Origin: an uncultured Planctomycetaceae bacterium
GTDB lineage: Bacteria > Planctomycetota > Planctomycetia > Pirellulales > Pirellulaceae
NCBI GenBank assembly: GCA_903863885.1
Contig: CAIPEB010000326.1
Location: forward strand, 1-55,907
DNA: 55,907 nucleotides
Direction: 5' to 3'
Shown here: positions 7,053 to 47,374 of the stretch, one piece after another
How positions within the stretch are numbered: the first letter of the stretch is position 1
Layout: the number at the start of each line of letters is the position of its first letter
Made by a program: the position numbers and the translations under genes
Notes under the pieces: model-generated
The model's database searches: none
Told to the model about the DNA's origin: nothing
Seen by the model: the letters and a program-made list of their open reading frames with translations, nothing else

Positions 7053-7775
7053 ATGCCATCCAAACCCAAGCGTAAGGCCGGTCGTCCGCCCGATGCGGAG
7101 AAGCGTGAGCGGCGGAAGGAAGAGATTCTGGCCGCGGCGGTGGGTCTGTTCGCTGAACGCGGTTACGCGAAGGCCGACACGCAGGAGTTGGCCGACATCC
7201 TGGGGGTGGGCAAAGGGACGATCTACCGGCACTTCAAGTCCAAACGCGAGTTGTTTCTCGCGACGGTCGGGCGGGCTATGTGCGAGTTGAAGGTCGCTGT
7301 GGACGAAGAGGTCGGGAAGGTGGACGACCCGCTGCGTCGAGTGGTCTGCGGAATGCAGGCTTACCTGACTTTCTTTGCGGACCACCCGCGGTACGTGGAG
7401 TTGTTTGTGCAGGAGCGGGCACTGTTCAAGGACCGCAGAAAGCCCACGTACTTCGAGCATCGGGACGCGAACATCGCAAGTTGGCGTGAGTTATTTCAAG
7501 GGTTGATCGCCGAGGGCCGGTGCCGGGACATCCCGGTCGATCGCATTCTGGATGTGATCGGCGACATGATGTATGGCGCGATGTTCACGAATTACTTCAT
7601 CGGCCGGGATCGGTCGCCTGCGCACCAGACGGCGGATATGTTGGACATCGCTCTGTACGGGATTCTCACGCCCGCGGAGCGGAAGCGGAGAGTCCGGTCG
7701 CCGCTCGAGCATGGCGGCGGCGCTGAGTCGGAGCCTCACAGCCCCGGGGAAGCTGCGTCTTCGGCGGGGATTTGA
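7053..7775 (+). CDS. TetR/AcrR-family transcriptional regulator
   Basis: N-terminal HTH (EEILAAAVGLFAERGYAKADTQELADILGVGKGTIYRHFKSKRELF) typical of TetR; ATG at 7053 verified in sequence; immediately upstream of the efflux adaptor and RND genes. Confidence 0.8.
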   Translation: MPSKPKRKAGRPPDAEKRERRKEEILAAAVGLFAERGYAKADTQELADILGVGKGTIYRHFKSKRELFLATVGRAMCELKVAVDEEVGKVDDPLRRVVCGMQAYLTFFADHPRYVELFVQERALFKDRRKPTYFEHRDANIASWRELFQGLIAEGRCRDIPVDRILDVIGDMMYGAMFTNYFIGRDRSPAHQTADMLDIALYGILTPAERKRRVRSPLEHGGGAESEPHSPGEAASSAGI

Positions 7776-7795
7776 ACAAAGCGGAAGCAGGAAAC

Positions 7796-9205
7796 ATGGC
7801 AGTGAAAGGCAAACGCTGGACGGTTATAGCGCTGATTGTGGTCGCGTTGGCGGCCGCGGCAACCGGAGTCTGTTGGCTCGAACTGGTCGTTGGCGGCGGC
7901 AACGGGCACGCGGCGGAAGCGGGAACGCAGCCGTCGGTTGATCCGTCGGCAACCGCTGCAAAAGGGGCGGAGCGTGCGGTCTCGCTCGAGGGCGAGCGGA
8001 TCGCGATGCGTTCAGTTCAGCGAACGGTCGGCGCGGTGGGATCGTTTGTCGGATATGACGAAGTGACGGTGAAAGCCGAGGTTTCGGGTCCGGTGGCCAA
8101 GGTGCTTCACGATGTCGGCGATGTCGTGCGCCCGGGCGATATTCTGATCGAACTGGACAAGACCGACTACGACCTGGAACTCGAACTGACCCGCCGCGCG
8201 CTTGAGCTGGAAGTGGTGCGACTGGGCGTCAAGGTTCCGGAAGAACCGTTGTCGCCCGACCAGATATCGGCGCTGCTGAAGCAATTCCAGGTGGATTCGC
8301 TGCCTTCGATCAAGCGAGCCCAGGAACAGGAGCAGAACGCGGCGTCGCGACTGCAGCGCGCCGAGCAGTTGCGGCAGCGCAATTCGATGAGCCAGGAGGA
8401 ATTTGAACAGCGCCAGATGGAGTACGACGTGGCGAAGAGTGCCCTGGACCAGGCCAACTTCGACGCCGAAGCGGCGCTGGCTGCGATTCGGCACCGCGCC
8501 GTGCAGTTGCGGATCGCGATGCGCAAGCTTCAGCTGTCCACGATTCGCGTTCCGACGCCCTCGAAACGCCTGCTCATGCCGGAACAGGTCCAGTACGCGG
8601 TCGTGCAGCGGAAGGTCACCGAAGGAGATCTGTTGAAGGATTCTCCCGGATCCTCCACGGCGGCCTTTGATCTGGTGATGGACGGAGTTCTGAAGCTGAA
8701 AGCTCAGGTGCCCGAACGCTACGTTGCGGATGTGAAGGAGGGCCAGGACTGCGTGCTGCACGTGGATGCCTATCCCAACCGCACGTTCTCGGGCAAGGTC
8801 ATTCGCATCAATCCGACCGTCGACCGTACGAACCGCACATTTGAGGTCGAGATATATGTCGCGAACGAGAAACGCGAATTGAAATCCGGCGGGTTCGCGA
8901 AAGTGGATATTCTCACCCGCGTCGATCCCGAAGCGTGGACCGTTTCGGGCGAGTCGATCGTGACCTATGCCGGTTCGACGCGTTTGTTCGTGGTGCGCCA
9001 GGGAAAAGCCCATTCGATTGTCGTCGAGAAGGGGATCGAAGGGGCCGGCTGGGTGGAACTGCTGCGTTCGCCCGAAATGGATCTGCGAGCCGACGACGTC
9101 GTAATCCGCGGCGGTCAGGACAAGCTGGCGGAAGGTACTCCGGTGCAGATCCGCAATGCGGCGCAACTCAATACATCAAAACCTGCTCAGCCAGCCTCAA
9201 GGTAG
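7796..9205 (+). CDS. efflux RND transporter periplasmic adaptor (membrane fusion protein, HlyD family)
   Basis: N-terminal TM anchor (WTVIALIVVALAAAA), coiled-coil rich middle, beta-barrel C-terminus; ATG at 7796 preceded by a GGAAGCAGGAAAC RBS-like purine run; precedes the RND pump. Confidence 0.75.
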   Translation: MAVKGKRWTVIALIVVALAAAATGVCWLELVVGGGNGHAAEAGTQPSVDPSATAAKGAERAVSLEGERIAMRSVQRTVGAVGSFVGYDEVTVKAEVSGPVAKVLHDVGDVVRPGDILIELDKTDYDLELELTRRALELEVVRLGVKVPEEPLSPDQISALLKQFQVDSLPSIKRAQEQEQNAASRLQRAEQLRQRNSMSQEEFEQRQMEYDVAKSALDQANFDAEAALAAIRHRAVQLRIAMRKLQLSTIRVPTPSKRLLMPEQVQYAVVQRKVTEGDLLKDSPGSSTAAFDLVMDGVLKLKAQVPERYVADVKEGQDCVLHVDAYPNRTFSGKVIRINPTVDRTNRTFEVEIYVANEKRELKSGGFAKVDILTRVDPEAWTVSGESIVTYAGSTRLFVVRQGKAHSIVVEKGIEGAGWVELLRSPEMDLRADDVVIRGGQDKLAEGTPVQIRNAAQLNTSKPAQPASR

Positions 9206-9209
9206 CGGT

Positions 9210-12200
9210 ATGAATCTCTGGGATCTCTGTATCCGGCGTCCGATCTTCACCGTGATGCTTGTTTCGGCGCCCATCGTGCTCGGCATTGTCGGCCGCAGCC
9301 GACTGGGCGTGGATCTGCTTCCGAACGTCGATCTGCCGATCGTTGTGGTGACCACGACGCTGAAAGGCGCGAGCGTCGAGGAGATGGAGACGAGCGTCAC
9401 CAAGCCGATCGAGCAGATCATCAACACGGTGTCGGGAATCGACGAACTGCGATCCACGACCAAGGAAGGTTATTCCCAGGTAGTGGTGCAGTTCTTCCTC
9501 GAGAAGGACCGCGATGTGGCGGCGCAGGAGGTGCGCGACAAGGTCTCGACGATTCTTTCGCAACTGCCCGTGGGAACCGAAACGCCGATCATCGACAAGG
9601 TGGATCTCAACGCCATGCCGGTAATGCAGATCGCCGTATCCGGCACCCGGCCCATGCAGGAAATCACCGAGCTCACGCGCAAGCGGATCAAGGAGGATCT
9701 GGAGAGTGTCTCCGGCGTCGGATCCGTCATCATCGTCGGCGGCCGGCAGCGCGCGATCAACATCTACATCGACACCGACAAGCTGACGAGCTGCAATCTG
9801 TCGATCGAGGACGTGCGGCAGGCGCTCGTCCGCCAGAACCTCGAACTCCCGGGCGGACGCGTGGACCAGGGCTCGCGCGAACTGGTGCTCCGCACGATGG
9901 GACGCGTGCCCGACGCTCAGGGCTTTCTCAATCTGATTGTCGCCAACCAGCAGGGATACCCGGTGCGGATACGCGATATCGGCCGGGTCGAGGATACGTT
10001 CGAGGAACCTCGCAGCCTGGCACGCCTGGATGGCCGCAATGCGGTGAGCCTGATCATCCAGAAACAGTCGGGAACGAACACGGTGGAGGTGGTGAAGAAG
10101 GTCCGCGAGCGTTTCAAGACACTCAAGGAACTGCTGCCGCCGGACATCGAGACATTTGTGGTCAAGGACCAGTCCGTGTTCGTCAAGAAGTCGATCGAGG
10201 AACTGAATTTTCACCTGGTCGTCGCTGCGATACTCGTGGCGATCACGATCCTGATCTTCATCCAGGACTGGCGGACTACGATTATCGCGAGCCTCGCGAT
10301 TCCGGCTTCGATCGTCACGACTTTTGCGTTCATGTACTGGATGGGCTACACGCTCAATAACATGACGATGCTCGGCCTGATCCTGGCGATCGGCATCGTG
10401 ATCGACGATGCGGTCGTGATCAACGAAAACATTTTCCGGCACATGGAGGAAGACGGAGTATCGGCCATGCAGGCGGCCTCCTCGGCGACCAAGGAAATCG
10501 CCCTGGCCGTCTCGGCGACAACGCTCTCGCTGCTGGTGATCTTCATCCCGATCGTCTTCATGGGCGGCCGTATCGGACGATTCTTCAGCAGTTTCGGCGC
10601 CACGGTCGCGTTCTCGATCCTGATCAGCTGGTTTGTCTCGTTCACCATGACACCCATGCTGTGCTCCAGGTTCCTGAAATTGAAAGAAGCCCGCGGTCAC
10701 AGCAAGGAAGGGCTCGTCTGGCGCGGGATCGACGGACTGTATGGCTTCATCCTCGGCTGGTCTCTGCGCCACCGCTGGGTGATCGTCCTGACGACCATCG
10801 GCATGTTCGTGTTGACCGTCTTCCTGTTTAGGGTCGTCGGCTTCGACTTCATTCCGCGGGACGATCAGAGCGAATTTGAGGTCGCAATGACGCTGCCCGA
10901 AGGGTACACGCTCACGCAGGCCGACAAGTTGTTCAAGGAGATCGAGGATCGGATCAGCAAGCTGAAAGGCGTGACAAACGTCTTCTCGACGATCGGAGAC
11001 ACGACGGGACGCATGTCGCGCGGCCAGGGCGACGTCACCTCCGGAACGATCTACGCCCGGTTGGTGGATCTCGAGACACGTACCCGCCAGTGGTACGACT
11101 GGAGGTTCTGGTCGCAGGCGATCCTGAACGAACCCGAAAAGGACCCGAAATACTTCTCGCAATTTGACGTGCAACGCGTCGCCCGCGAGATCATGAACGA
11201 ATATCCGGACCTCCGCACGGCCGTCCAGGATTCGGCCGTGGTATCGGGAGCCGGCTTCCGGCAGGCCATGGTGGACCTGAACCTCCGAGGGCCCGATCTC
11301 CACAAGCTTCAGGAATACGCGGACCGCATCGTTGCCTGGATGAAGCAGCATCCGGACTACGTGGATATCGACACGAGCCTGTCTTTGCGCAAGCCGGAAC
11401 TGCGAGTAAAGATCGACCGCGAGCGGGCTTCGGATCTCAATATTCCCATTCAGACCGTCGCCGCGATGCTCAACGTGCTCGTGGGCGGCGAACCAGTCAC
11501 GAAGTACAAGGAACTCGATGAACAGTACGACGTCTGGCTCCGCGCCGATGCCAAGTTCCGCAATCGACCGGAAGCCATCGGCCGGCTGATGATCCCTTCG
11601 CCTAAAGCAGGCCTGGTGCAGCTGTCCAGTCTGGCAACGCTGGAGCCGGCTCGCGGACCCGCCACGATCGACCGCTTCGGCATGATGCGCCAGGTGGTAA
11701 TCACCGCCAACCTGGAAAACAACAAAGCTCTTGGGAACGCGGTCAATGAACTCAGCGAACTGGTCGATTCCTTCAAGTTGCCGGCCGACTATCGCTACGA
11801 GTTTCTCGGTCGAGCCAAGGTGATGGGCGAATCAAACCAGAACTTCCTGATCGCGTTCCTCACCAGCTTCCTGTTCATGTACATGATCCTCGCGGCCCAG
11901 TTCGAGAGCTTCACGCACCCGATCACGATTCTGCTGGCGCTGCCGCTCACTCTGCCGTTCGCCCTGATCTCGCTCATCCTGCTGAAGACGAACCTCAACC
12001 TGTACGCAATGTTCGGGCTCTTCATGCTGTTCGGGATTGTCAAGAAGAACGGCATTCTGCAAGTGGACTTCACGAACGTGCTGTGCCGGCGCGGGATGCC
12101 CGTGAATCAGGCGATCCTCGAGGCAAATCATACGCGACTGCGGCCGATTCTGATGACGACCGTGATGCTGATCGCCGCCATGATTCCGATTGCGCTGGGC

Positions 12201-12431
12201 CGCGGCCCCGGTGCGGAGTCCCGCGCAAGTCTCGCGAAGGTCATTCTCGGCGGCCAGACGCTGTCGCTGCTGCTGACGCTGCTGGTGACCCCCGTCGCTT
12301 ACTCGCTTTGGGAAGATCTGGCCCGACATGGCCGGCGATTCGCCGCCCGGATCCGCCGTGCTCCGGCAAAGAAGGCCGTGATCGAGGAGCCTGATCCGGA
12401 AGCAGCGGAACAGCTTGAAGGCGTGACTTGA
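9210..12431 (+). CDS. RND multidrug/HAE1-family efflux permease (AcrB-like)
   Basis: 1074-aa protein with 12 TM helices and two large periplasmic loops; AcrB-type N-terminus MNLWDLCIRRPIFTVMLVSAPIVLGIVG; ATG at 9210 verified. Confidence 0.9.
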   Translation: MNLWDLCIRRPIFTVMLVSAPIVLGIVGRSRLGVDLLPNVDLPIVVVTTTLKGASVEEMETSVTKPIEQIINTVSGIDELRSTTKEGYSQVVVQFFLEKDRDVAAQEVRDKVSTILSQLPVGTETPIIDKVDLNAMPVMQIAVSGTRPMQEITELTRKRIKEDLESVSGVGSVIIVGGRQRAINIYIDTDKLTSCNLSIEDVRQALVRQNLELPGGRVDQGSRELVLRTMGRVPDAQGFLNLIVANQQGYPVRIRDIGRVEDTFEEPRSLARLDGRNAVSLIIQKQSGTNTVEVVKKVRERFKTLKELLPPDIETFVVKDQSVFVKKSIEELNFHLVVAAILVAITILIFIQDWRTTIIASLAIPASIVTTFAFMYWMGYTLNNMTMLGLILAIGIVIDDAVVINENIFRHMEEDGVSAMQAASSATKEIALAVSATTLSLLVIFIPIVFMGGRIGRFFSSFGATVAFSILISWFVSFTMTPMLCSRFLKLKEARGHSKEGLVWRGIDGLYGFILGWSLRHRWVIVLTTIGMFVLTVFLFRVVGFDFIPRDDQSEFEVAMTLPEGYTLTQADKLFKEIEDRISKLKGVTNVFSTIGDTTGRMSRGQGDVTSGTIYARLVDLETRTRQWYDWRFWSQAILNEPEKDPKYFSQFDVQRVAREIMNEYPDLRTAVQDSAVVSGAGFRQAMVDLNLRGPDLHKLQEYADRIVAWMKQHPDYVDIDTSLSLRKPELRVKIDRERASDLNIPIQTVAAMLNVLVGGEPVTKYKELDEQYDVWLRADAKFRNRPEAIGRLMIPSPKAGLVQLSSLATLEPARGPATIDRFGMMRQVVITANLENNKALGNAVNELSELVDSFKLPADYRYEFLGRAKVMGESNQNFLIAFLTSFLFMYMILAAQFESFTHPITILLALPLTLPFALISLILLKTNLNLYAMFGLFMLFGIVKKNGILQVDFTNVLCRRGMPVNQAILEANHTRLRPILMTTVMLIAAMIPIALGRGPGAESRASLAKVILGGQTLSLLLTLLVTPVAYSLWEDLARHGRRFAARIRRAPAKKAVIEEPDPEAAEQLEGVT

Positions 12432-12440
12432 TCCGTCGCG

Positions 12441-12593
12441 GATGCCGGATGCCGGATGCCAGATGCCGGTGGTAGATCGGAAGTCTGTGTTCCTCCAGAC
12501 TCCAGCCTCCAGCCTCCAGACTCCAGCCTCCAGACTCCAGACTCCAGCCTCCAGACTCCAGACTCCAGACTCCAGACTCCAGACTCCAGACTA
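12441..12593. repeat. composite tandem repeat: (GATGCCG)x4, 25-nt spacer, (CTCCAGACT/CTCCAGCCT)x about 12
   Basis: Direct reading: gatgccggatgccggatgccagatgccgg ... ggaagtctgtgttc ... ctccagactccagcctccag... lying between the convergent RND pump and outer-membrane-factor genes. Copy 1 of the family also seen at 34508-34574 and 37257-37350. Confidence 0.85.
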
Positions 12594-14159
12594 CGACGAG
12601 GCGGAATCGGGCGTCGGGACGGTTTCTGGTTCCTGGTCCGCTGTCGGTTGATCGGGGGAACCGCCTTCGATGGCCATGCCGTTCAGGGCCTGGAACTGCC
12701 AGCCGCCCCCGAGCGCTCGATACAGGGCAATCAACTTCTGAGCGACGTTGCCTTGAGTGGACACTCGCTGCTCCTGGACCACAAGGCGGAACTTCTGCGC
12801 ATCGAGCACGGTCTGGTAGCTCTCCGCTCCTTCGTTCCATCGCGTTCTCGCGACCTCTTCGGCCTTGGTTGCTGCTGCGTCCGCCTGGTCCAGCAGTCTC
12901 AATCGCTCTTGCAGTTCGACGTAGGCATTCAATGCCGTTTCCACTTCCTCGAGGCTGCGGAGCACCGTGCTCTCGTAGCGAAGCATGGCTTCCTGGAGTC
13001 GCGTGTCCTGTACCCGAATGTTGTTGCGAATGCGTCCGAACTGGATGATCTTCCAGCGGATTGAAGGGCCGGCAAGGCGATAGCTGATGCTGCCGCCCTC
13101 GAACAGATTCGCGGCGTCGACGGCCTCCCAGTTGAAGGTACCCAGCAGCGAAACATCGGGATACAGATCGGATACGGCCACGCCCACGCGGGCAGTCTGG
13201 GCGGCGATCTCGCGTTCCACGCGGCGCACGTCCGGCCGTTGCCGAATCAGGCTGACAGGCAGATTGAGCAGAACTTGCTCCGGGGCTTTCGGAATCGGAG
13301 CGGTTCCCAACTCGGGTTCGAGATCGTGCGGTATCTCCGCCCGCAGCACGCACAGGCGATGCATGACCCCGCGCAACTGGCTCCGCAGACCCGGAATTGT
13401 CGCCTGCGTATTTCGAAGGACGGAGGTCGCCTGCGACACTTCGAGGATCGTCGTATTGCCCGCGTCGAGTTTGTCCTTTATCAGCTTTTCGGTTTCCTCC
13501 TGGACGCGGGCATTGTCCATCGCGATCTTGATCTGTTCCTGGATGGTTCGCAGATCCATGTAATTCGAGGCCACTTCCGCAAACAGGCTCACGGCCACGG
13601 CGCGGTGGTCTTCGACCGCCACACCGATTTCCGCATCCGCGGCTTCCACCGAGCGACGCACCTTTCCAAACAGGTCCAGTTCCCAACTTGCATCGAACCC
13701 GTTCGAGAACAGGTCGAACGGAGCGAAACCGGGGAAACCCGGCAGAGATCCGCTGGTGAATCCAAACGGGTTACCGTTGGTGCTGATCTGATTGCGAGTG
13801 TATTCCGTCGCGGTCGAGATCGACGGAAACAGATTGCCGGCGACGACGCCCCGCGCATATCGGGCTTCCATGATCCTCGCACCCGTTACCCTCAGGTCGA
13901 GGTTCGAGTTGGCCGCATCGTAAACCAATTGGTCGAGTTTCGGGTCTTGGAATACGGTCCACCACGACGTGTCGATCAATTCGTTCTGAGGAGCCAGTTC
14001 TGCGTTCTGGGGCAGTTCCTGATTCCATACTTCGGGCATACTGACCACGGGGGGCGCAAAGTCGGGTCCCACCTTGCAACCGGGCGTCAGAGCAATGAAC
14101 GCACCGAGCAGGAATAGAGGTCCGAACGTGCTACCAACAAGTCTCTTGAGTAACGTCAT
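12591..14159 (-). CDS. efflux transporter outer membrane factor lipoprotein (NodT/TolC family)
   Basis: Lipoprotein signal MTLLKRLVGSTFGPLFLLGAFIALTPGC; two TolC-like repeats rich in coiled-coil; convergent to the RND operon. Confidence 0.8.
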   Translation of the reverse strand: MTLLKRLVGSTFGPLFLLGAFIALTPGCKVGPDFAPPVVSMPEVWNQELPQNAELAPQNELIDTSWWTVFQDPKLDQLVYDAANSNLDLRVTGARIMEARYARGVVAGNLFPSISTATEYTRNQISTNGNPFGFTSGSLPGFPGFAPFDLFSNGFDASWELDLFGKVRRSVEAADAEIGVAVEDHRAVAVSLFAEVASNYMDLRTIQEQIKIAMDNARVQEETEKLIKDKLDAGNTTILEVSQATSVLRNTQATIPGLRSQLRGVMHRLCVLRAEIPHDLEPELGTAPIPKAPEQVLLNLPVSLIRQRPDVRRVEREIAAQTARVGVAVSDLYPDVSLLGTFNWEAVDAANLFEGGSISYRLAGPSIRWKIIQFGRIRNNIRVQDTRLQEAMLRYESTVLRSLEEVETALNAYVELQERLRLLDQADAAATKAEEVARTRWNEGAESYQTVLDAQKFRLVVQEQRVSTQGNVAQKLIALYRALGGGWQFQALNGMAIEGGSPDQPTADQEPETVPTPDSASS

Positions 14160-15375: not shown

Positions 15376-16100
15376 GCTTTGATCTCCTTCAGATCTTCTT
15401 CAATGGTCTGTTTTTTGTTTGTAATAGGTCTTAGCCCGATGTGGACCTGCACCGAGCGAGGGGGGCCGGATTCGGCCGTGGCAAGATGGATGTTCTGCAT
15501 ACTAACTGGAGGGCGAACGACTTGTCGAGGTGCCGTTCCGCCCACCCTTCGCTTTTCGCACCCTCCGAAGGTGTTCGTATGGTCAGATGCCGGATACCGG
15601 ATGGCCGAGTTGACATTCAGGGGCTTCGCATCGCAGGATGAGAACTCCGATGCCAATCGACGGAAGCTGGAGAGTGAGATGATTCGTGGCTTATCCGCGA
15701 AGACCCGTGGCCTTTTTCCCTCCGCGTGAACAAATGAGTCGATCCCCCTCTCCCTGTCGGCCGCTGCTCATTGCGATGTGTCTGTCCAGTTATCATGGCG
15801 GAGCGTGCGTGGCAAATGCAGACGGGTCAACGCAGTGGCTGGACGACGCAACGGCGGAAGAGACGGTGAGGGCACTGCTCGCTCAATAGGCTGCACGGGC
15901 CGCTTGGGACGCGTGTTATTGACAGATCCGACACTTGTGCAAACGCCGTTTGCCTGTGTCTAGCGTCTCTCCTCGAACTTGAAGACCATTCCTGCTTCTC
16001 GGTGAAGCCGATCGCGAGAAGGCTGGTTTTCCGCTTCCGCCCGTGCACATAAAATCAAATCGGTCAATTTCTATCGACGAACTGCACGAGGGCGGCTCGC

Positions 16101-33286: not shown

Positions 33287-33359
33287 AGCGGGTGATGGGA
33301 ATCGAACCCACGACAACAACGTTGGCAACGTTGTGCTCTGCCAACTGAGCTACACCCGC
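33287..33359 (-). tRNA. tRNA-Gly (anticodon GCC), 73 nt, CCA not encoded
   Basis: Reverse complement folds as a cloverleaf: acceptor GCGGGTG/CACCCGC, D-arm GCTCAGTTGGCAGAGC, anticodon stem-loop CAACG-TTGCCAA-CGTTG, T-arm GTGGGTTCGATTCCCAT, discriminator U; followed by a T-run. Confidence 0.85.
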
Positions 33360-34258: not shown

Positions 34259-34507
34259 CGGCGAGGTCTTTCTCCCGAGGCCGTCAGCATCCGCAGACCG
34301 CTGCCCAAGGAACAGGCGGTTTCTGTGGTTCGGGGGACTCAGGGGTTTTGTTGCGCGAGGTACTTGATCCGGCTTAATATGCCGCGCTGATCCGGTGGCT
34401 CGCGGCGGACGGGACGCGAAACTCGCGGCCATCGTCGGCGGCCATTGTAAGTTCGGGGCCGGCCGGACGACAAGTTGTCGCATATTGGCGAAGCCGAGGC
34501 GTGCGAA

Positions 34508-34574
34508 GAAGTCCGGAGTCTGGAGTCCGGAGTCTGAAGTCGGGAGACAAGCAAATGCCCATCCGGCATCCCCC
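34508..34574. repeat. composite repeat copy 3 (inverted orientation): (AGTCYGGAG)n, spacer, GCCCATCCGGCATCCC
   Basis: gtccggagtctggagtccggagtctgaagtc ... gcccatccggcatccc is the reverse complement of the GGATGCCGG-spacer-CTCCRGACT architecture seen at 12441-12593 and 37257-37350. Confidence 0.75.
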
Positions 34575-34783
34575 TTCCACTTCACCCTCCTGCGGAAGCG
34601 GGGAGGGTCGACGGCGAGTAACGAGCCGGCGGGGAGGGCTCATCGAACTTCACTTTGGTTTCCTATGACCCTCCCCGGATAACTCGCTAACGCTCGTTCC
34701 CGACCTTCTCCCAAAAGGAGGGTTAAGGATGCCGAGTACCGACTACCGGCATCGCTTTTGATATTCTGCGCGGCGAAGGCCTT

Positions 34784-36382
34784 TCATTTCACCTCCGCAT
34801 CGGCAGCGTCCTTCCGCGGCGGGATCGGTTTCTCTTCGGAATCTTTGCCAAGCCGGATCAGGGACTCCGGCAGTTCGATGCCGCCGATGTCTTTCATTAC
34901 CTGCATCATGGGTGGCAGGCTTCGGGAAATGCCGCTGAGAAAATCGGCCGTACTGCTCCGCCCGTTCTGGCCGCCGTTTTCCCAGACGACGATTTTGTCG
35001 AACTTGATATTGGAGATCGCGCGGGCCGAAGTTTCGGCGAGCCGATCGAGATGTTCCAGCATCAGCAGCTGGAATGCGCGGTCGGCGCCGCCGCAGGCCT
35101 CGACGATCTGTTTGAGGCCTTCGCCCTTCTTGGCCAGGATTTCAAACTGGCCCCTGGCCTCCGCCGCGAGCTTCGCGTAGTTCGCATCCGCTTCGGCCTG
35201 AGCGTCGATGCGTTTTCTTTCCGCTTCGGCTTCCGCCTGAACCACGATACGGGCTTTTTCCGCTTTGGCAGGCGCCTCGAGTTGTGCGCGTTTCTCGGCT
35301 TCCACTCGTTCGGCCTCTGCGAGCATCGCCTTGGCCATCGCACGGTTCTGGACTTCGAGCACTGCGGCTTCTGCTTCCCGCTTCCGGCTTTCGCCGATCT
35401 GGTACGCCTCGGCTTTTCTCACCTGCAATTCGGCCTGCGAACCGGCGATCTTCGCCTGCGAGAGGTTTTCGCCTTCGATTGCCTCCGCATCGGCGGCAGC
35501 CACGCGAATACGCTTGTCGCGTTCCGCCGCCTTCACCTCGGCTTCCCGGCCGAATGCGGCCTGCTGTTCGCCGACGATCTGCTCCCGTTCCAGATCGGCA
35601 AGCTTGATCTGCTGGTCCCGCTCCGCCTCACGCGTCCCGATCGCCTGGTCGCGGCGCGAATTGGCGACCTGGATCGACTTGTCGCGTTCGGCCGTGGCGA
35701 CGCGCGTTTCGCCCATGCGCAAGTTGTCCGCCACGTCGCCGCGAGCCTTCTGGATGGCCTCCGATGCGGCCTTCTGGCCGATGGCGTCGATATAACCCGA
35801 CTCGTCCGTGATGTCCGTGATGTTGACGTTGATGAGTTGAAGGCCGATCTTGCTCAACTCAGGCTCGAGCGAATGCTGCACGTGCTTGAGGAACACGTCG
35901 CGGTCGCGATTGATCTCCTCGATGTGCATCGAAGCGATGACCTGCCGCAGTTGGCCGAAGATCATTTCCTCGGCCTGCTTGCGGATCTCCGCGGCGGAAA
36001 GCCCGAGCAGTCGCACGGCCGCGTTCTGCATGACCTCGGGCCGCGTATCGACGGCGACCGTGAAGACGCTCGGCACGTTTACCCGGATGTTCTCCGCGGA
36101 CAACGCACCGCGAAGCGGCACTTCGATCTGGATCGGCTCGAGGCTCAGGTACGCGAAGTCCTGCAGAAGCGGTACCACGAATGCGGCACCGCCATGAATC
36201 GTGCGCGCCGCGCCGCCTTTGTTCGTGCGGCCGTAAATCACCAGCACGCGGTTACTCGGACACCGCTTGTATTGCCGCGAGAAGAGAATCACCACCATCA
36301 GGAAGAACATGGCCGCGAAGCCCGCTGCGACGAGCACCGGGACCCACCAGTCGGCGGCCGCGATAATCATGGTTGAAGACAT
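34784..36382 (-). CDS. flotillin-family SPFH protein (FloA/YqiK-like)
   Basis: N-terminal TM, SPFH domain, very long Ala/Glu-rich coiled coil (EAEAERKRIDAQAEADANYAKLAAEARGQ), flotillin C-terminus; start MSSTMIIAAADWW (ATG 36380-36382). Confidence 0.85.
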   Translation of the reverse strand: MSSTMIIAAADWWVPVLVAAGFAAMFFLMVVILFSRQYKRCPSNRVLVIYGRTNKGGAARTIHGGAAFVVPLLQDFAYLSLEPIQIEVPLRGALSAENIRVNVPSVFTVAVDTRPEVMQNAAVRLLGLSAAEIRKQAEEMIFGQLRQVIASMHIEEINRDRDVFLKHVQHSLEPELSKIGLQLINVNITDITDESGYIDAIGQKAASEAIQKARGDVADNLRMGETRVATAERDKSIQVANSRRDQAIGTREAERDQQIKLADLEREQIVGEQQAAFGREAEVKAAERDKRIRVAAADAEAIEGENLSQAKIAGSQAELQVRKAEAYQIGESRKREAEAAVLEVQNRAMAKAMLAEAERVEAEKRAQLEAPAKAEKARIVVQAEAEAERKRIDAQAEADANYAKLAAEARGQFEILAKKGEGLKQIVEACGGADRAFQLLMLEHLDRLAETSARAISNIKFDKIVVWENGGQNGRSSTADFLSGISRSLPPMMQVMKDIGGIELPESLIRLGKDSEEKPIPPRKDAADAEVK

Positions 36383-36416
36383 CGTTGAAATCTCCGAGTT
36401 GTTCGTGCCGTCCCAG

Positions 36417-37055
36417 TCAGTCTGTCCGGTTGCCCGAGGCGTCTTCGTCCCGTTTCCGTGGAGCAACTTCCACCAGTCCCGGTCCGACGATCCGCTCGAC
36501 GACTACTTCTGTTCCTGCCGGTAAGTCGCAATCCGCGGAAGTCATGGCCGCGTATTCGACCAGTCGTTCCTGCAGGCCGATTTGAACCTTCCCTTCGCCC
36601 CTGCGATTCGCGGGTACGGGCAGGTAAACTGTTGCCGGGCGTCCGACCGCCCGTTCGATTCGCAGCGTGTGGTCCTGGCCGAGCCGAAACATGGTCTGCA
36701 TGATCCAGTGCACCGCAACCATCGCGCTGCCTCCGCATACCAGCCCAATAGCGATGGCCTCCAGAGGTGTGCGATCGCCGCGCAGTGCCGCATAGCCGGT
36801 CAATCCGAAAAATGTCACTGCGGCGACAATCGTGCGAACGGAAATGATGCTGAAGAGCCAGGTCGAGTTGTGCGTCGAAGAATCCTGAGTGTGCCCGTGG
36901 CCCATTCCGTCATGTGCGTCGGCCATGCCAAAGTCGTGCGGCACCTCGTGGGAAACCTCCATGTCGCTGCTTCCCATGCCGGCCAGAGTCAAAAGAAACT
37001 GGCAGACGAAGATCGCTCCCCCGACGGCGGCGCAGACTAGATAAAACGTCTCCAT
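36417..37055 (-). CDS. NfeD-like (YqiJ-type) membrane protein, flotillin partner
   Basis: N-terminal TM helices, central His/Asp-rich loop, C-terminal OB-fold-like beta region (GEGKVQIGLQERLVEYAAMTSADCDLPAGTEVVVERIVG); 35 nt upstream of the flotillin gene; start METFYLV with AAGGA RBS. Confidence 0.7.
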   Translation of the reverse strand: METFYLVCAAVGGAIFVCQFLLTLAGMGSSDMEVSHEVPHDFGMADAHDGMGHGHTQDSSTHNSTWLFSIISVRTIVAAVTFFGLTGYAALRGDRTPLEAIAIGLVCGGSAMVAVHWIMQTMFRLGQDHTLRIERAVGRPATVYLPVPANRRGEGKVQIGLQERLVEYAAMTSADCDLPAGTEVVVERIVGPGLVEVAPRKRDEDASGNRTD

Positions 37056-37256
37056 GGATCGAAATCCTTGCCGTGCTTCGACGACGCGTGCAGTGGGAAT
37101 TCGCGGATCGGGCGTCGTTATTGGAAGTGGGCACGTCTTCGAATCATCGTTCGCGTCCGATCGGGCGTCAAACGAAATTCGATGCCGGCGGTTCGCTTTG
37201 ACGACTCGCCATCCGCCGGTCGGTCGATATACTGGCCCGTCGTGCGGGAGTGGGGA

Positions 37257-37350
37257 CCGGATGCCGGTCGCCGGATGCCGGTCGCCGGATGCCGGATTGG
37301 AAGTTCGTGTTCCTCCAGACTCCAGACTCCAGACTCCAGACTCCAGACTC
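37257..37350. repeat. composite repeat copy 2: (CCGGATGCCGGTCG)x3, GGAAGTTCGTGTTC spacer, (CTCCAGACT)x5
   Basis: Seen directly in the divergent intergenic region between the NfeD-like gene and the CbiX-like gene; the spacer GGAAGTYYGTGTTCCTCCAGACTCCAG is shared with copy 1. Confidence 0.85.
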
Positions 37351-37365
37351 TTAGAACTGCGACGC

Positions 37366-37842
37366 ATGAACGAGAGCAGCGGCAAATCGCGAAGTCAGCC
37401 TTGGCCCGGCGAGCGGGTCGCAGTGATCGTCGTGGATCACGGCTCTCGACGCGATGACGCGAATCGGATGCTCGAGGAGTTAACGCGTTCGCTGGCCGAC
37501 GCGACCGGCTGCCACATCGTGGAACCGGCCCACATGGATCTTGCCGAACCGTCGCTGGAGACTGCGTTTGCGCGGTGCGTGCAGCGGGGGGCACAGTTGG
37601 TGGTCGTCCATCCGTATTTTCTGTTTCCGGGCCGTCACTGGGAGGCCGATATTCCTGATCTCGTGTCGAGAGCCGCAGGCCGGCACCCGGGTGTTCGATA
37701 TCTCATCACCGCGCCGCTGGGCCTGCATCCTCTGATGATTGACGTGATCGCCGATCGCGTGGATCAGTGCCTCGGGCACGCCGGCGGAACCGGCAGCGCA
37801 TGCGCGGTCTGCGAAGGAACGAAAAGGTGTCGGATCAGGTAA
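37366..37842 (+). CDS. CbiX/SirB-type small class II chelatase (sirohydrochlorin cobalto/ferro-chelatase family)
   Basis: VAVIVVDHGSRRDDANRMLEEL... and second half-site HPYFLFPGRHW are CbiX-S signatures; ATG at 37366 verified. Confidence 0.7.
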   Translation: MNESSGKSRSQPWPGERVAVIVVDHGSRRDDANRMLEELTRSLADATGCHIVEPAHMDLAEPSLETAFARCVQRGAQLVVVHPYFLFPGRHWEADIPDLVSRAAGRHPGVRYLITAPLGLHPLMIDVIADRVDQCLGHAGGTGSACAVCEGTKRCRIR

Positions 37843-39471: not shown

Positions 39472-40956
39472 ATGCCGTTGATTCTCGTCATCGACGACGA
39501 TCCGATGGTGCAGCATTGGTTTCGTCGTGAATTTGAAAACACGGACTTTGAGGTGGTGCCGGCTCGGAGTGCTCTCGAGGGGCTGGGGCTATTGCGTGGG
39601 CATTCACCGGACGTGGTGATGCTGGATGTGGTATTGCCCGACATGTCGGGTCTCGATGCGTACCAGCGGATCCACGAATCGGACCCGAAACTGCCGGTGA
39701 TTTTCATCACGGCGGGCGGCGAGAGTGAGACGGCGATTGAAGCGATGAAACTGGGGGCTCTGGACTATTTGTTCAAGCCGCTCGATCGCAAGCAGGTCCG
39801 GCATCTGGTGGGACGCGCGATCGAGATCCGTCGCCTGATGGAGACGCCGGTACAGTTTCAGACAACGTCCGTCGACCTGGGGAGTCCGGACGTGCTGGTC
39901 GGCCGCTGCACGGCCATGCAGGAAGTCTACAAGGCGATCGGCCGCGTGGCGTCGCAGGATGTGACGGTGCTCATTCAAGGCGAAAGCGGCACGGGCAAAG
40001 AACTGGTCGCCCGGGCGATTTACCAGCACAGCCGCCGCACCGCCGGTCCGTTTCTTGCGATCAATTGCGCGGCGATTCCCGAATCGCTCCTGGAGAGCGA
40101 GCTGTTCGGGTACGAGCGGGGGGCCTTTACGGGGGCCGAGCACCGGCGGATCGGCAAGTTCGAGCAGTGTTCGGGCGGGACGCTTTTTCTGGACGAAATT
40201 GGAGACATGTCTGCGTCGACGCAGAGCAAAGTACTGCGAGTGCTGCAGCAGCAGCGTTTCGAACGACTCGGTGGAAGCGAGACGATCGAGACCGACGTAC
40301 GCATCATCGCCGCCACGAATCGCGATCTCGACGAACTGGTGGGACAGGGGAGGTTTCGGGCCGACCTCTTCTACCGGTTGAACGTTGTCACTATCCAGTT
40401 GTCTCCGCTGCGAGAACGGCTCACGGATATTCCGCTGCTTCTGCATCACTACCTCAGCCGTTTCAGCCGCGATTTGAGAAAGAGCGTGACCTCCATCGCG
40501 CCCGAATCGCTGGACATGCTGCTCAGCTACCACTGGCCGGGCAACATCCGCGAGTTTCAGAGCGTGATCAAACATGCGATTCTGCACGCGACCGGGTCCG
40601 TGCTGCTCCCGGACTTCATGCCCGACTCGGTTCGCGGCGCCCGTGTCCGATCCGCGGGCGGCGGCGTCGACTGGGCGGCCAACGGCGGGGTACCTTGGGA
40701 GACGTTCATTCAGCAGCAGCTTTCCGGCCAGACGAATACGCTGTATGCCGATGTAATTGCTCAGGTCGAGCGGCACCTGCTTGCGGCGGTCCTGCGACAC
40801 ACCAATGGGAATCGGGTGCAGGCCGCGCGGATTCTGGGAGTGACCCGCAGCACGTTGCGCAGCAAGATGTCGTCGCTCGGGATCAGCATCGGGAATTCCG
40901 TGTTGGCGGAACGCGGGGCCGGCGGCGAGTCCTCTGACGGTGCCCGCGATGAGTGA
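39472..40956 (+). CDS. sigma-54-dependent transcriptional activator, NtrC-family response regulator (REC plus AAA+ plus Fis-HTH)
   Basis: REC domain with phospho-acceptor Asp context (VVMLDVVLPDMSG), Walker A GESGTGKELVARAIY, GAFTGA motif, ESELFGYERGAFTGA, C-terminal HTH; no adjacent histidine kinase. Confidence 0.9.
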   Translation: MPLILVIDDDPMVQHWFRREFENTDFEVVPARSALEGLGLLRGHSPDVVMLDVVLPDMSGLDAYQRIHESDPKLPVIFITAGGESETAIEAMKLGALDYLFKPLDRKQVRHLVGRAIEIRRLMETPVQFQTTSVDLGSPDVLVGRCTAMQEVYKAIGRVASQDVTVLIQGESGTGKELVARAIYQHSRRTAGPFLAINCAAIPESLLESELFGYERGAFTGAEHRRIGKFEQCSGGTLFLDEIGDMSASTQSKVLRVLQQQRFERLGGSETIETDVRIIAATNRDLDELVGQGRFRADLFYRLNVVTIQLSPLRERLTDIPLLLHHYLSRFSRDLRKSVTSIAPESLDMLLSYHWPGNIREFQSVIKHAILHATGSVLLPDFMPDSVRGARVRSAGGGVDWAANGGVPWETFIQQQLSGQTNTLYADVIAQVERHLLAAVLRHTNGNRVQAARILGVTRSTLRSKMSSLGISIGNSVLAERGAGGESSDGARDE

Positions 40957-43900
40957 GCCAGCGACGTCCATCCATTCTTCGTCGCTGGCCGGCTTTCATG
41001 CGATCGTGCGGCAGTGGTTTTGTCAGACTTTCGAGCAGGCGACACCCGCGCAGGCGATCGCCTGGCCGCTGATCGCGGATCACCGGCACACACTGCTGCT
41101 TGCGCCGACCGGTTCAGGAAAAACGCTGGCCGCGTTTCTTGTGGCGATCAATCGCATCATGTTCGAGTCCGCGGCCGCCGAGTCGTCCGGCGTGCGCGTC
41201 CTTTATATCTCGCCGCTGAAGGCGCTTGGCGTGGATGTTGAACGCAATCTGAGGTCGCCGGTCATCGGTGTCCGCACCTTGGCCGAGCGGGAGGGCGTGG
41301 CGCATCGCGTCCCCCGCGTCGGAGTCCGATCGGGGGACACGGCGACCCGGGATCGGCTCGACCTTGTAAAACGCCCGCCCGACATCCTGATCACGACGCC
41401 CGAATCGCTTTACCTGATGCTGACATCGCAGGCGCGTCGCATTCTGCGAACCGTGGACACGGTGATCATCGATGAGATTCACTCGCTCGTCAGCAACAAG
41501 CGGGGAGCCCATCTGTTTGTGTCGCTGGAGCGTCTCGAATCGCTTCGCCGCGAGCAGCAGGCTGCCGCTCGACCGCTGCAGCGGATCGGGCTTTCCGCGA
41601 CTCAGCGGCCGCTCGACGAGATCGCGCGACTGCTGGGAGGCGCCGAGGCAACGAGCAATCCGGACGAAACGCCGCGCCGCCGGCCGGTGGAAATTGTCGA
41701 GGCCGGGGTCAGCAAGCAGCTGGAGTTGCGGATCGAAGTGCCTGTCGAAGACATGGCACGCCTGGCCGAACCGATCATCGTGTCGGGTTCGGCATCTGCC
41801 GGTCCCACGCTGCCGTCGATCTGGCCGGCGATTCATCCGCGGCTGGTGGAACTGATCCGCTCGCACCGCAGCACGATGATCTTCGTCAACAGTCGACGTC
41901 TGGCCGAGCGGCTGGCGGCGGCGCTGAATGAACTGGCGGGCGAGGAGTTGGTGTTGGCCCACCACGGGTCGATCGCCAAGGACAAGCGGCTGGAGATTGA
42001 GGACAAGCTCAAGTGCGGGCAGTTGCCGGCGATCGTGGCTACCTCGTCACTGGAGTTGGGGATCGACATGGGCGCCGTGGATCTGGTGATCCAGGTCGAA
42101 TCGCCGCCGTCGATTGCTTCCGGCATTCAGCGAATAGGCCGCGCCGGGCATCGGGTGGGAGAGCCTTCGACCGGCGTGATCTTCCCGAAGTATCGGGGCG
42201 ATCTGCTGGCTTGCGCAGCGGCCGGCGAGAAGATGGTGCGCGGGGAGGTCGAGTCGACGTTCTATCCCCGCAATCCGCTCGACGTCCTGGCCCAGCAGCT
42301 GGTGGCCATGGTCTCGCTTCAGACGGTATCCGTGGACGAACTTTATGCGATCGTGCGGGGGGCGGCGCCGTTCTTCGATCTCCCGCGGGGGAACTTCGAG
42401 GGAGTGCTCGACCTTCTGTCGGGACGGTATCCGTCGGATGAGTTCGCGGAATTGAGGCCGCGTATCACGTGGGATCGCGTGGCCGGCGAGGTATCGCCCC
42501 GTCGCGGAACGCAGCGTTTGGCGATTGCGAATGCCGGGACCATCCCCGACCGCGGTCTCTACGGCGTGTTTCTGGCCGGGGCCGAGGGGCCGGGGAACCG
42601 CGTGGGTGAACTCGACGAAGAGATGGTCTTCGAGACGCATCCGGGCGATGTGTTCCTGCTGGGCGCATCGTCGTGGCGCGTCGCGGACATCACGCACGAT
42701 CGGGTACTGGTCGTTCCCGCGGCCGGCGAACCGGGAAAAATGCCGTTCTGGCGAGGGGAGGGGCCGGGCCGCCCCTTGGAGTTCGGCCGCGCCATCGGCG
42801 CGCTGGTCCGGCGGTTTTCGCGAGCCGATTCGACGGCCGCGCGGCAGGAACTGGTGAGTCAGCACGGACTGGGACCGGAGGCGGCCGCCAATCTGCTGAG
42901 GTACCTGGAAGACCAGGCTCAGGCCACGGGCGAAGTGCCCACCGATCGAGAGATTGTCGTGGAGTGTTTCCTGGACGAAGTGGGCGATTGGCGGATTGCC
43001 GTTCTTTCGCCGTTCGGTGCCAGGGTGCACGCGCCGTGGGCCATGGCCGCCGTTGCCCGATTGCGGGAACTGACGCCGGGCGAAGTCGACATGGTCTGGA
43101 GCGATGACGGGATCGTTTTTCGACTGCCCGAGTCGGACGAACCGCCGCCGCTCGAGTGGTTGTTTCCTTCGGCGGAAGAGATCGAGGACCTCGTGGTCAA
43201 CCAGTTGGGCGGCACGGCGCTTTTCGCATCGCGGTTCCGAGAGAACTCGGCCCGCGCGCTGCTGCTGCCCCGGCGGCAACCCGGCCGCCGCACGCCGCTG
43301 TGGATTCAGCGCCGACGGTCCGCCGATCTGCTGTCCGTGGCCGCCAGATATCCCGGTTTTCCGATGTTGCTGGAGACTTACCGCGAGTGTCTGCGCGACG
43401 TCTTCGATCTGCCCGGGCTGAAGGGCCTTCTCGCTGAAATTGCCAACGGTTCGATTCGCGTGCATCGCGTCCGCACCGAGACGGCGTCGCCTTTTGCCGC
43501 GTCGCTGCTGTTCAATTACACGGCCAATTTCCTGTACGAGGGAGATGCTCCGCTGGCGGAACGCCAGGCTCAGCTTCTGGCGCTGGATCACGCTCAACTG
43601 CGGGAGCTTCTGGGCGACGCGGAAATCCGCGAGCTGTTGTCGGCCGAGGTGGTCGAAGAATTGAACCTCGAACTGCAGGGGCTCGTCTCCAATCGAAGGC
43701 TGACGCATCCGGATACAGTGCATGACGCTTTGCTGCGTTTGGGCGACTTGAGCCGCGACGAACTTGCGCAGCGATGTTCCCCCGAAACCTCGGACGCCGG
43801 GCTGCTGGACCGCTGGCTCGAAGAGCTTGTGGTTCAGCGCCGCATCCTGGAGGTGCGGATCGCGGGCGAGCGTCGCATGGTGGCCGCGGAGGACGCGGGC

Positions 43901-45466: not shown

Positions 45467-45547
45467 ACACGGAGTTTCCACGAGCGGCCCGCGAGCAGTT
45501 TTCGGGGCCGTCCCTTTCGTATTCCCGGAAGCGATGCGAGGCGGATC

Positions 45548-46345
45548 ATGCCGGAAGGAGACACGATCTACCGCATAGCCGTTCGCCTGCGGCCCATCCT
45601 CGAGCAGCAGCGCATCGCGCACGTGACGGCACGCGATTCGCGGCTGGCTGTCGATACGGTCGCGGGGCAGATCGTCGCTTCGATCGAACCGCGGGGAAAG
45701 CACCTGTTGATCCATCTCGCCAACGGGCACGCCGTGCACTCGCACCTTGGGATGACCGGCTCCTGGCACGTCTATTCCATCGGCGAGACCTGGCTCAAGC
45801 CGGCTTCTTATGCGGCATTGACCCTGTCGACGGAGCGCGCCGTCTGCGTGTGTTTCAGTCCGAAGACCCTGGAGTTGCTTTCGCCGGATGCCCTGCGGAG
45901 GCACACGCATCTGCACCGCCTTGGCCCGGATGTACTGGCGGATGACTTTGACGGCGAGCAGGCTCTCGTCCGGTTTCGTGTCCGCGATGACTTGCCGATC
46001 GGCGAAGCCATCATGGACCAGACGATCCTGTGCGGTGTGGGCAATATCTACAAATCCGAAACGCTGTTCAAATGCCGGCTGAATCCGTTCCGTCCGGTTT
46101 CTTCGCTGACGGACGGCGAATTGCGAGGGCTGATCGTCGCGGCTCGACGGCTGATGCGGGCCAATCGTACCGGGCACGATCGTCGCACTCGTTTCCAGCA
46201 CGACGGCGACCGATTCTGGGCCTACGGCCGCAGCGGTCAGCCGTGTCTGCATTGCGGGCAACGCATCTGCATGCGGCATCAGGGAACACTCGGCAGGTCC
46301 ACGTACTGGTGTCCAGGTTGCCAGCCCGCAGCTCAGGGTCAATGA
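45548..46345 (+). CDS. nei: Fpg/Nei-family DNA glycosylase (endonuclease VIII-like)
   Basis: Catalytic N-terminus MPEGDT (Pro2 nucleophile), H2TH region, C-terminal zinc finger CLHCGQ...CPGC; 82 nt downstream of lhr, as in mycobacterial lhr-nei operons. Confidence 0.85.
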   Translation: MPEGDTIYRIAVRLRPILEQQRIAHVTARDSRLAVDTVAGQIVASIEPRGKHLLIHLANGHAVHSHLGMTGSWHVYSIGETWLKPASYAALTLSTERAVCVCFSPKTLELLSPDALRRHTHLHRLGPDVLADDFDGEQALVRFRVRDDLPIGEAIMDQTILCGVGNIYKSETLFKCRLNPFRPVSSLTDGELRGLIVAARRLMRANRTGHDRRTRFQHDGDRFWAYGRSGQPCLHCGQRICMRHQGTLGRSTYWCPGCQPAAQGQ

Positions 46346-46381
46346 ACTGCCGCAAGACTTCATGCAGGGGAGTTCACGGAA

Positions 46382-47272: not shown

Positions 47273-47374
47273 CGCGCCGATCCTCGTCCTGCGACTATAC
47301 TATCCAGTCACGCGTTTTCCCGCGCAACCGCCCTCGCGTGCATTGCAATCAGCTTCCCCCACACGGATCAATCC

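Follow-up and report, generated by a model that had tools for sequence, protein, structure and literature searches.

We describe here a composite tandem repeat in a contig of 55,907 nt (CAIPEB010000326.1; "the window" below means this whole stretch) from an uncultured Planctomycetaceae bacterium. It occurs in three copies, and in all of them an array of GGATGCC-type heptanucleotides is followed by a spacer and then by an array of CTCCAGA-type heptanucleotides, with order and orientation unchanged. Together with its spacer, this two-array module has been copied as a unit between at least two intergenic sites, and its arrays grow and shrink by whole units of 7 nt. The arrays of the window are a new example of a published class of repeats, the heptanucleotide long simple sequence repeats (SSRs) and short tandemly repeated repetitive (STRR) sequences, and not a new kind of element. 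It is probable, in our view, that they are hypermutable by slippage, tolerated in intergenic DNA, and of incidental or modulatory effect in the untranslated regions (UTRs) of the transcripts that contain them.

Periods and unit counts were obtained with Tandem Repeats Finder (TRF), and the sites were also read directly. TRF returned period 7 at all five arrays of the three copies; the window holds three strict period-7 arrays and none of any other period within 4-12. An earlier note on this DNA had proposed three composite copies, and these are real: TRF found arrays at all of them, and they are far in excess of a baseline of 100 dinucleotide-preserving shuffles, with 21 matches to CTCCAGACTCCAGA at up to two mismatches against 0.34 expected (0 of 100 shuffles reached 21) and 10 matches to GGATGCCGGATGCC in the window against 1.19 expected. 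The same note took the unit to be 9 bp long and repeated 3 to about 12 times. Its 9-mers, GGATGCCGG and CTCCAGACT, result from reading heptamers with an overlap of 2 nt, and the CTCCAGA-type arrays hold 14.3, 5.4 and approximately 5 units in copies 1, 2 and 3. A 9-bp unit had also been given as the reason for the open reading frames across the repeats, which was wrong. No stop codon occurs in either heptamer, whatever the phase or strand, so all six frames are open through the arrays, and the 7-residue period of the spurious peptides (TPDSRLQ, WSLESG and so on) corresponds to 3 x 7 = 21 nt.

The copies are 153, 94 and 67 nt long (copies 1, 2 and 3; Table 1). The 5' array of copy 1 reads GGATGCC GGATGCC GGATGCC AGATGCC GG, and its 3' array is a mixture of CTCCAGA and CTCCAGC units in the order A C C A C A A C A A A A A A. 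In the 5' array of copy 2, GGATGCC and GGTCGCC alternate, so that TRF also reports a perfect 14-nt super-unit, CCGGATGCCGGTCG, repeated 2.8 times. Both the super-unit of copy 2 and the variant pattern of copy 1 are typical of growth by slippage. Copy 3 is a degenerate version of the module in the same order, with a 3' array that on the minus strand reads CTCCCGA CTTCAGA CTCCGGA CTCCAGA CTCCGGA CT. The spacer GGAAGTYYGTGTTC is present in the window in copies 1 and 2 only. It is identical at 12 of 14 positions and abuts the CTCCAGA array directly, which indicates that these two copies share ancestry as a module. The spacer of copy 3 showed no significant similarity to the other two and gave no match in the spacer pattern search. 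The idea of a dispersed repeat family with one architecture and, in copies 1 and 2, a conserved spacer is therefore borne out by a module with homologous spacer found at least twice in 25 kb and by a third, degenerate copy.

Table 1. Coordinates of the repeat copies, of the genes next to them and of phage genes that carry a CTCCAGA tract
Feature	Position	Strand	Description	Basis
Copy 1, 5' array	12440-12469 (TRF 12439-12469)	+	CGGATGC, approximately 4.3-4.4 units	TRF (91% matches), pattern search
Copy 1, spacer	12470-12492	+	12479-12492 is GGAAGTCTGTGTTC, homologous to copy 2 spacer	
Copy 1, 3' array	12493-12592	+	CTCCAGA/CTCCAGC x14.3	TRF (93% matches, score 172)
Copy 2, 5' array	37257-37297	+	CCGGATG x5.9	TRF
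Copy 2, spacer	37299-37312	+	GGAAGTTCGTGTTC, 12/14 identity to copy 1 spacer	
Copy 2, 3' array	37313-37350	+	CTCCAGA x5.4, 100% matches	TRF, gene call, alignment
Copy 3, 3' array	34508-34546	-	Degenerate CTCCRGA, approximately 5 units	TRF (period 7/14)
Copy 3, spacer	34547-34557	-	CATTTGCTTGT on the minus strand	
Copy 3, 5' array remnant	34558-34574	-	GGATGCC GGATGGG, 2 units; GGATGCCGGATGGG at 34558-34571	
Candidate fourth array	15585-15605	+	AGATGCC GGATACC GGATGGC; solitary, degenerate, intergenic, without CTCCAGA partner	
AcrB-type gene	9156-12431	+		
OEP/TolC-type gene	12591-14159	-		
Hypothetical gene left of copy 2	36417-37055	-		
cbiX	37366-37842	+	Ferrochelatase gene next	
Phage gene with tract, L125	2444-3460	-		
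Phage gene with tract, L141	10406-11563	-		
Phage gene with tract, L169	3109-4020	+		

Upstream of the solitary triplet that forms the candidate fourth array lies GAAGGTGTTCGTATGG, with a faint resemblance to the spacer of copy 2. Another repeat of the window, at 48173-48218, is an imperfect one of 14-nt period (TGATCCGCYCCGTT x3.3, 65% matches) in the gap between two convergent open reading frames (ORFs), 47273-48175 on the plus strand and 48252-49025 on the minus strand.

The unit-number alleles were found in other metagenome assemblies, in which the loci were retrieved by exact-protein look-up. Copy 2 is identical to that of the window in L313, L314 and L315. In a contig of ERR4194106 (L117/L122) it has 3.4 units instead of 5.4, a difference of 14 nt between flanks that are 100% identical. 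We take this allele as real because the collapse of a 38-nt array through a k=31 loop gives 31 nt, not 24. The gap that contains copy 1 is 7 nt shorter in ERZ1426820, where all downstream gene coordinates are shifted by 7 (known from coordinates only), and in L116, which has a 100% identical OEP protein, copy 1 has 8 units instead of 14 and an A/C pattern equal to that of the window less six internal units. All length differences are multiples of 7, and the suggestion of a phase-variable tract was correct in that its length is variable. Several short contigs (L114, L116, L316 and L117) end inside arrays. At 1947-2054 of L116 (ERZ18643896) the array joins a different spacer, GAAGCTGGATTAGTGTTTGTTTTC, and a partner array, (GTAGGCY)n; this junction is either a recombinant allele or another type of composite module in the lineage, or an assembly jump to a further composite locus of the same population.

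The gene context, based on Pfam scans and on the gene calls carried by public assemblies, places all three copies in intergenic DNA, as had been claimed. Copy 1 fills a gap of 159 nt (12432-12590) between convergent AcrB-type and OEP/TolC-type genes: its 5' array starts 8 nt after the AcrB-type stop (12431), and the end of its 3' array overlaps the stop codon of the OEP/TolC-type gene (12591-12593). Copy 2 is located in a divergent gap of 310 nt between a hypothetical gene and cbiX, and ends 15 nt before the cbiX ATG (37366), with no obvious Shine-Dalgarno sequence. The further claim that all copies sit at gene boundaries does not hold for copy 3, which lies 209 nt past the stop of an SPFH gene (34784) and 249 nt ahead of 34258, where the gene for a hydrophobic 216-aa protein is called to start. 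Consensus pattern matches point to promoter-like sites upstream of copy 2 (37206-37233, plus strand) and between copy 3 and its downstream gene (34473-34444, minus strand), and a terminator scan of 34300-37500 revealed neither a terminator-like site nor a U-tract at copies 2 and 3. The cbiX gene is called at 193, 158 or 124 aa by different assemblies (starts 37261, 37366 and 37468); the 193-aa call begins within the GGATGCC array, where open frames invite false N-terminal extensions.

Unit-number polymorphism only 15 nt upstream of the cbiX start could be taken as the mark of a contingency locus, at which expression would be turned on and off, as a form of bet-hedging (phase variation), by changes in unit number near cbiX/ferrochelatase or other genes. 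We regard this as very improbable. The arrays are found neither inside ORFs nor between -35 and -10 elements, the classical locations of contingency SSRs, and the neighbors have housekeeping or efflux functions and do not encode surface antigens. Copy 1, between two stop codons, offers no possible switch, and four of five assemblies share one copy 2 allele, so switching is not rapid. Moreover, according to the summary in PMC4679880, Mrazek et al. set the long heptamer SSRs of large-genome free-living bacteria apart from contingency SSRs, whose units are 1-4 nt long.

A miniature inverted-repeat transposable element (MITE)-like origin, that is, a non-autonomous mobile element transposing as a unit, had been suggested in the earlier note, and the same module with a homologous 14-nt spacer at separate intergenic sites would be expected of it. 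A CTCCAGA array flanked by an imperfect direct repeat of 26 nt, TGTAAAAWARTGCACATGTGGTGRTS, in one other genome (L078, a Planctomycetota metagenome-assembled genome, or MAG; approximately 7720-7850, reverse strand) is, among the matches listed, the sole case resembling a long target duplication. Nevertheless, this origin is largely refuted for the window, and we give it hardly any credence. Neither terminal inverted repeats nor target-site duplications were found at the three copies of the window, which have no fixed length. Their flanks have nothing in common, the ends of the element being the ends of the arrays and not conserved, copy 3 lacks the shared spacer, and no transposase is associated with the module.

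Other known kinds of elements were also rejected. Clustered regularly interspaced short palindromic repeats (CRISPR) do not fit, as no unique spacers occur between the units, and neither do iterons or a replication origin in the window, with no replication gene nearby. G-quadruplex formation was discarded for units that hold GG runs only. The units GGATGCC and CTCCAGA are not canonical for a strict cyanobacterial STRR sequence, and the gene content would point to Planctomycetota. The Rfam search gave no match above the gathering threshold at the repeats, its sole match being a tRNA gene (33287-33359, minus strand, 70 bits) between the trigger-factor gene and the gene of the hydrophobic 216-aa protein. 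For a start-proximal placement of the TAACTGA type the picture is mixed, with copy 2 (15 nt, sense) having it and copies 1 (between stops) and 3 (249 nt) lacking it. Of the features of long SSRs, on the other hand, the 7-nt unit, the excess over composition, the intergenic site and the unit-number polymorphism were found.

When 185,579 species-representative genomes were scanned for (CTCCAGA)3, the repeat proved to be widespread, with three or more units in at least 112 genome stretches from at least 10 phyla. The counts that follow, up to those from viruses, refer to the matches listed. They include Acidobacteriota (many of them Pyrinomonadaceae), Planctomycetota, Cyanobacteria, Bacteroidota, Chloroflexota, Hydrogenedentota and Gemmatimonadota, and none (L001-L112) resembles the window beyond the repeat itself. 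A scan of Joint Genome Institute (JGI) metagenomes for both heptamers with any spacer gave four matches, all of CTCCAGC type and from unrelated organisms, and so added no copy from this lineage. In the 803 kb that the matches listed comprise, 222 arrays of at least three units have period 7 (78 of them with other units), compared with 18, 3, 5, 4, 1, 0, 0 and 0 arrays of periods 4, 5, 6, 8, 9, 10, 11 and 12, respectively. Of 128 arrays, 112 are not contained in long ORFs. Starts and stops are abutted, often within 30 nt, and there is a mild bias (50 sense-upstream vs 37 antisense-upstream); the gene calling behind these figures is crude and noisy (the right side of copy 1 was mis-called), and they express aggregate tendencies only. 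In one Planctomycetota MAG (L001) the array fills a convergent gap and touches both stop codons, like copy 1.

The usual layout is an array, a short spacer and another array. For 172 CTCCAGA-type arrays the partner lies 5' in 85 cases and 3' in 5, in a count that takes each hairpin twice and includes many related genomes. The reverse complement accounts for 68 of the 5' partners, forming (TCTGGAG)n-loop-(CTCCAGA)n hairpins, and the reverse order never occurs. Upstream of the longest CTCCAGA arrays (11-17 units, in L065, L076, L098 and the window), at a distance of 25-71 nt, there is in every case a heptamer array that contains GATG. The low-GC metagenome contig L119 carries (GGATGYC)5-spacer-(CTCCAGC)6-(CTTTCAC)4, and in two Planctomycetota MAGs (L021 and L070) the order is (CTCCAGA)4-5 and then (GTCTTGT)n.

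Two further observations were made in these genomes. In Acidobacteriota/Pyrinomonadaceae (L008, L014, L019, L056, L058, L067 and others) we found a dispersed hairpin family with many loci per genome, composed of (AGTCTGG)3-5, GAGTCAAAAG..loop..CTTTTGACTC and (CCAGACT)3-5. Its inner stem is conserved, its GGAG-bearing arm always comes first, and it often ends a few nucleotides before an ATG. A homologous triple composite, formed by (AGTCTGG)n, (AACGATG)4, a spacer of approximately 60 nt containing AAAAAACTTGAC, and (CTCCAGA)12-17, is shared by L065 (4660-4890) and L076 (1020-1260), labeled Blastocatellia and "Actinomycetota"; either the module is common to the two lineages or one bin is mislabeled.

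Most array pairs elsewhere are complementary: among CTCCAGA-type pairs, 32 of 53 match at seven of seven positions, and 18 of 25 pairs that lack the seed unit match at six or more. This would suit a structured RNA or DNA element (a hairpin like those of repetitive extragenic palindromic [REP] sequences and bacterial interspersed mosaic elements [BIME], a 3'-end stabilizer or a bidirectional terminator) whose arms diverged from a complementary pair. Copy 1 lies between convergent genes, the usual place of a terminator. Its minus strand, the 3' tail of the OEP mRNA, is predicted to fold into an imperfect long hairpin (-49.4 kcal/mol, z = -2.7), and its spacer GGAAGTCTG can pair in the predicted fold with the first CAGACTCC of the array, giving a small hairpin. 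We nevertheless find such an element quite improbable. GGATGCC and CTCCAGA are complementary at only four of seven positions, and the element-strand RNAs fold no better than shuffles (z = -0.08 for the core of copy 1, +0.87 for copy 2 and -0.34 for copy 3). Whole copy 1 gave z = +2.4 on that strand, (CUCCAGA)n RNA being unusually unstructured. Copies 2 and 3 have no significant predicted structure on either strand, and the absence of U-tracts there in the scanned 34300-37500 and of Rfam matches points the same way. A RAYT gene (Y1 transposase), the usual associate of REP/BIME-like elements, was not seen, although no search was directed at it. The statement that the two halves are not complementary was therefore roughly right, the minus strand of copy 1 being the part that departs from it, and the conclusion that this is not a simple REP hairpin holds, as there is no stable palindrome on the element strand.

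In a control for unit preference, we searched the viral collection (IMG/VR) for three tandem units of CTCCAGA and of two permutations with matched composition. CTCCAGA was found in 62 stretches, CCATCGA and CACGTCA (the permutations) in 17 and 2, TAACTGA in 107 and GGATGCC in 2. Most of the 62 viral CTCCAGA matches (L123-L184) represent a different phenomenon, a tract inside phage genes. This tract is usually 28 nt long, CCAGA(CTCCAGA)3CT, and encodes QTPDSRLQT in a long sense ORF with an N-terminal DUF1376 domain (E = 1e-28 to 9e-19; examples in Table 1). It directly follows phage-specific iteron-like repeats (AACCCAnnTGGGTT, CAACGAATCGTT x3, GCAATGC xN, AACGTTACG xN) and almost never has a partner array. 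Among the matches listed, no bacterial intergenic array lies within a DUF1376-type gene. From its sequence, the tract with its iteron-like repeats resembles an origin of replication that lies inside a replication gene. It recalls phage lambda, whose replication origin lies within the O gene. The unit junctions each carry GACTC, a GANTC methylation-type site.

The main rival to incidental or modulatory UTR effects is that the arrays act as multivalent DNA or RNA binding sites for a sequence-specific protein (S1, Csp, a CsrA-type protein or a DNA regulator), which would tune the neighboring genes. Copy 2 has the placement that such a role would predict, in sense orientation just before the cbiX ATG and downstream of the promoter-like site, and many CTCCAGA arrays elsewhere end within 30 nt of a start codon. 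The recurrence of CTCCAGA across phyla, above both composition-matched controls, and the polar architecture also argue for it, as does the GATG-containing array upstream of the longest arrays in unrelated phyla (L065, L076, L098, L119 and the window). The unstructured (CUCCAGA)n RNA would suit a single-strand binder, and an analogous proposal was made for the TAACTGA repeats of Beggiatoaceae (MacGregor 2015, PMC4679880). Even so, the contexts are mixed, with copy 1 between convergent stops and copy 3 far from the next start, and starts and stops are abutted on either strand with a mild bias. Unit number is not conserved, no candidate binder was identified, and the promoter site is a consensus match only. 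Based on these data, we consider a binding role possible, although unlikely.

Slippage, the explanation we prefer, has its own difficulties. It accounts for the growth and shrinkage of arrays but not for the arrival of two units and a spacer at separate loci, and the dispersal step would lack a known mechanism. CTCCAGA seems to be favored across phyla, as judged from its excess over the two permutations among viral matches, and the 85:5 polarity of the pairs is not predicted by neutral slippage alone and hints at selection or a shared origin. The data also have a limited reach, the source genome being covered by the 56-kb window and fragments, the ERZ1426820 allele being derived from gene coordinates and the L116 partner array being possibly an assembly jump. 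CTCCAGA looks like a favored unit with a polar pairing rule. It is doubtful, however, that it is a cross-phylum preferred heptamer forming a polar (GGAG/GATG array 5', CUCC array 3'), functional and horizontally spreading module. The tract beside iteron-like repeats in the phage DUF1376 replication genes belongs to this reading as well. If CTCCAGA is recognized, the factor involved could be a replication or repair protein, GANTC-type methylation (given the GACTC at each unit junction) or an anti-Shine-Dalgarno-like interaction. Recognition by a ubiquitous factor would make the arrays functional spreading modules instead of neutral products of slippage.

Under slippage, slipped-strand mispairing during replication or repair would add and remove 7-nt units. 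Mismatch repair handles loops of 1-3 nt well and longer ones poorly (PMC4060949), so loops of 4 nt or more, such as those of a heptamer, would be corrected poorly, and it has been suggested that 7 nt corresponds to the footprint of the polymerase. Arrays may then expand until they meet start or stop codons; as 7 cannot be divided by 3, only intergenic DNA would tolerate them. The module itself may have been copied through exchange between arrays (recombination, gene conversion or template switching) and not through transposition. Once in place, the arrays would lie within the 5' leader of cbiX and, for the AcrB-type and OEP genes, within the 3' tails; there unit number may alter the length and local structure of the leader or tail without making the arrays a dedicated switch for turning genes on and off.

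In several bacterial phyla, few unexplained repeats are as abundant as heptanucleotide arrays. This locus adds a planctomycete example, direct evidence of unit-number alleles in natural populations, and a module copied with its spacer between loci, which goes beyond simple slippage. If unit number modulates the cbiX/ferrochelatase leader or the tails of the efflux operon, expression would be tunable. In practice, such arrays break short-read assemblies, create spurious ORFs and lead to wrong start-codon calls. Nothing here overturns current understanding.

Some features of the window stand apart from the repeats. Two long ORFs overlap on opposite strands (40844-45466, plus; 42047-47299, minus). 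The assembly gene calls place an Lhr-type DEAD-box helicase of approximately 1505 aa on the plus strand, and the 1750-aa minus-strand ORF is therefore probably a high-GC shadow ORF. According to the same calls, a PSCyt1/PSCyt2/PSD1 gene adjoins a DUF1501 gene, a pair that would point to Planctomycetota and not to cyanobacteria. The contig L315 (ERZ18644181) is 100% identical to the window up to its locus position 6041 (window 35015, inside the SPFH gene), past which the sequences diverge and an odd 808-aa "CLP_protease" is called; a rearrangement or a chimeric assembly is possible.

A literature search revealed nothing specific to heptamer arrays of Planctomycetes, and a search for the exact repeat strings gave chance primer or human matches only. 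The class itself is known: the earlier note did not recognize the repeat as a described element, a view that cannot be kept, since tandem arrays of heptanucleotides, in excess in intergenic DNA, are published. STRR heptanucleotides with the units CCCCAGT, TTGGTCA and CAACAGT were reportedly described from heterocystous cyanobacteria by Mazel and colleagues in 1990. Like the arrays of the window, cyanobacterial STRR sequences are tandem heptamers of several unit types per genome, dispersed, intergenic and of unknown function, but they have other units, belong to another phylum and form no fixed two-array module. Tandem heptanucleotides of this kind are known from Calothrix (PMC4692102).

In Xanthomonas, GGGAATC forms approximately 180 intergenic arrays per genome, typically of about four units and up to 26 (Rehm et al. 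2015, PMC4692102), and the GGGAATC/GGGGAYT heptamers of Xanthomonas and Nostoc vary extensively in length and sequence between close species (PMC4692102). They share with the present arrays the intergenic location and the variable length, and some are convergent inverted pairs able to form stem-loops (PMC4692102). With their G3-4 tracts, those units were investigated for G-quadruplex formation, a rationale that does not transfer to CTCCAGA and GGATGCC. The TAACTGA arrays found just upstream of starts in Beggiatoaceae, Cyanobacteria and Bacteroidetes, for which a translational role via S1, Csp or CsrA-type proteins was proposed (MacGregor 2015, PMC4679880), are likewise made of one heptamer in scattered lineages and often lie a few nucleotides before starts without an evident Shine-Dalgarno sequence, as in copy 2. 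Their frequency in the viral collection is of the same order as that of CTCCAGA (107 vs 62). They have a strong forward bias upstream of starts, whereas CTCCAGA arrays occur in mixed contexts with a mild bias and are usually paired.

REP/BIME and MITE-type elements resemble the copies of the window in being short, dispersed, intergenic and often located between convergent genes, and in other phyla the likeness to REP/BIME extends to CTCCAGA arrays that form hairpin arms with conserved inner stems. The copies of the window differ from them in lacking a stable palindrome, fixed ends, inverted repeats and target duplications, and in having heptamer arms of variable number.

The closest relatives are the long SSRs. 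Heptanucleotides are their most abundant class in many prokaryotic genomes, an excess attributed to polymerase slippage with a footprint of approximately 7 nt (Mrazek, Guo & Shah 2007, both points as summarized in PMC4679880 and PMC4692102). The class has been described as intergenic, length-variable between close relatives, sometimes arranged in inverted pairs and sometimes located just upstream of starts (PMC4692102, PMC4679880). With it the arrays of the window have in common the 7-nt unit, the head-to-tail arrangement, a length greater than chance, the intergenic location, the variation in length and the proposed origin by slippage. Long SSRs, however, have been described as single arrays, whereas in the window two heptamers and a homologous spacer form a module that has itself been copied.

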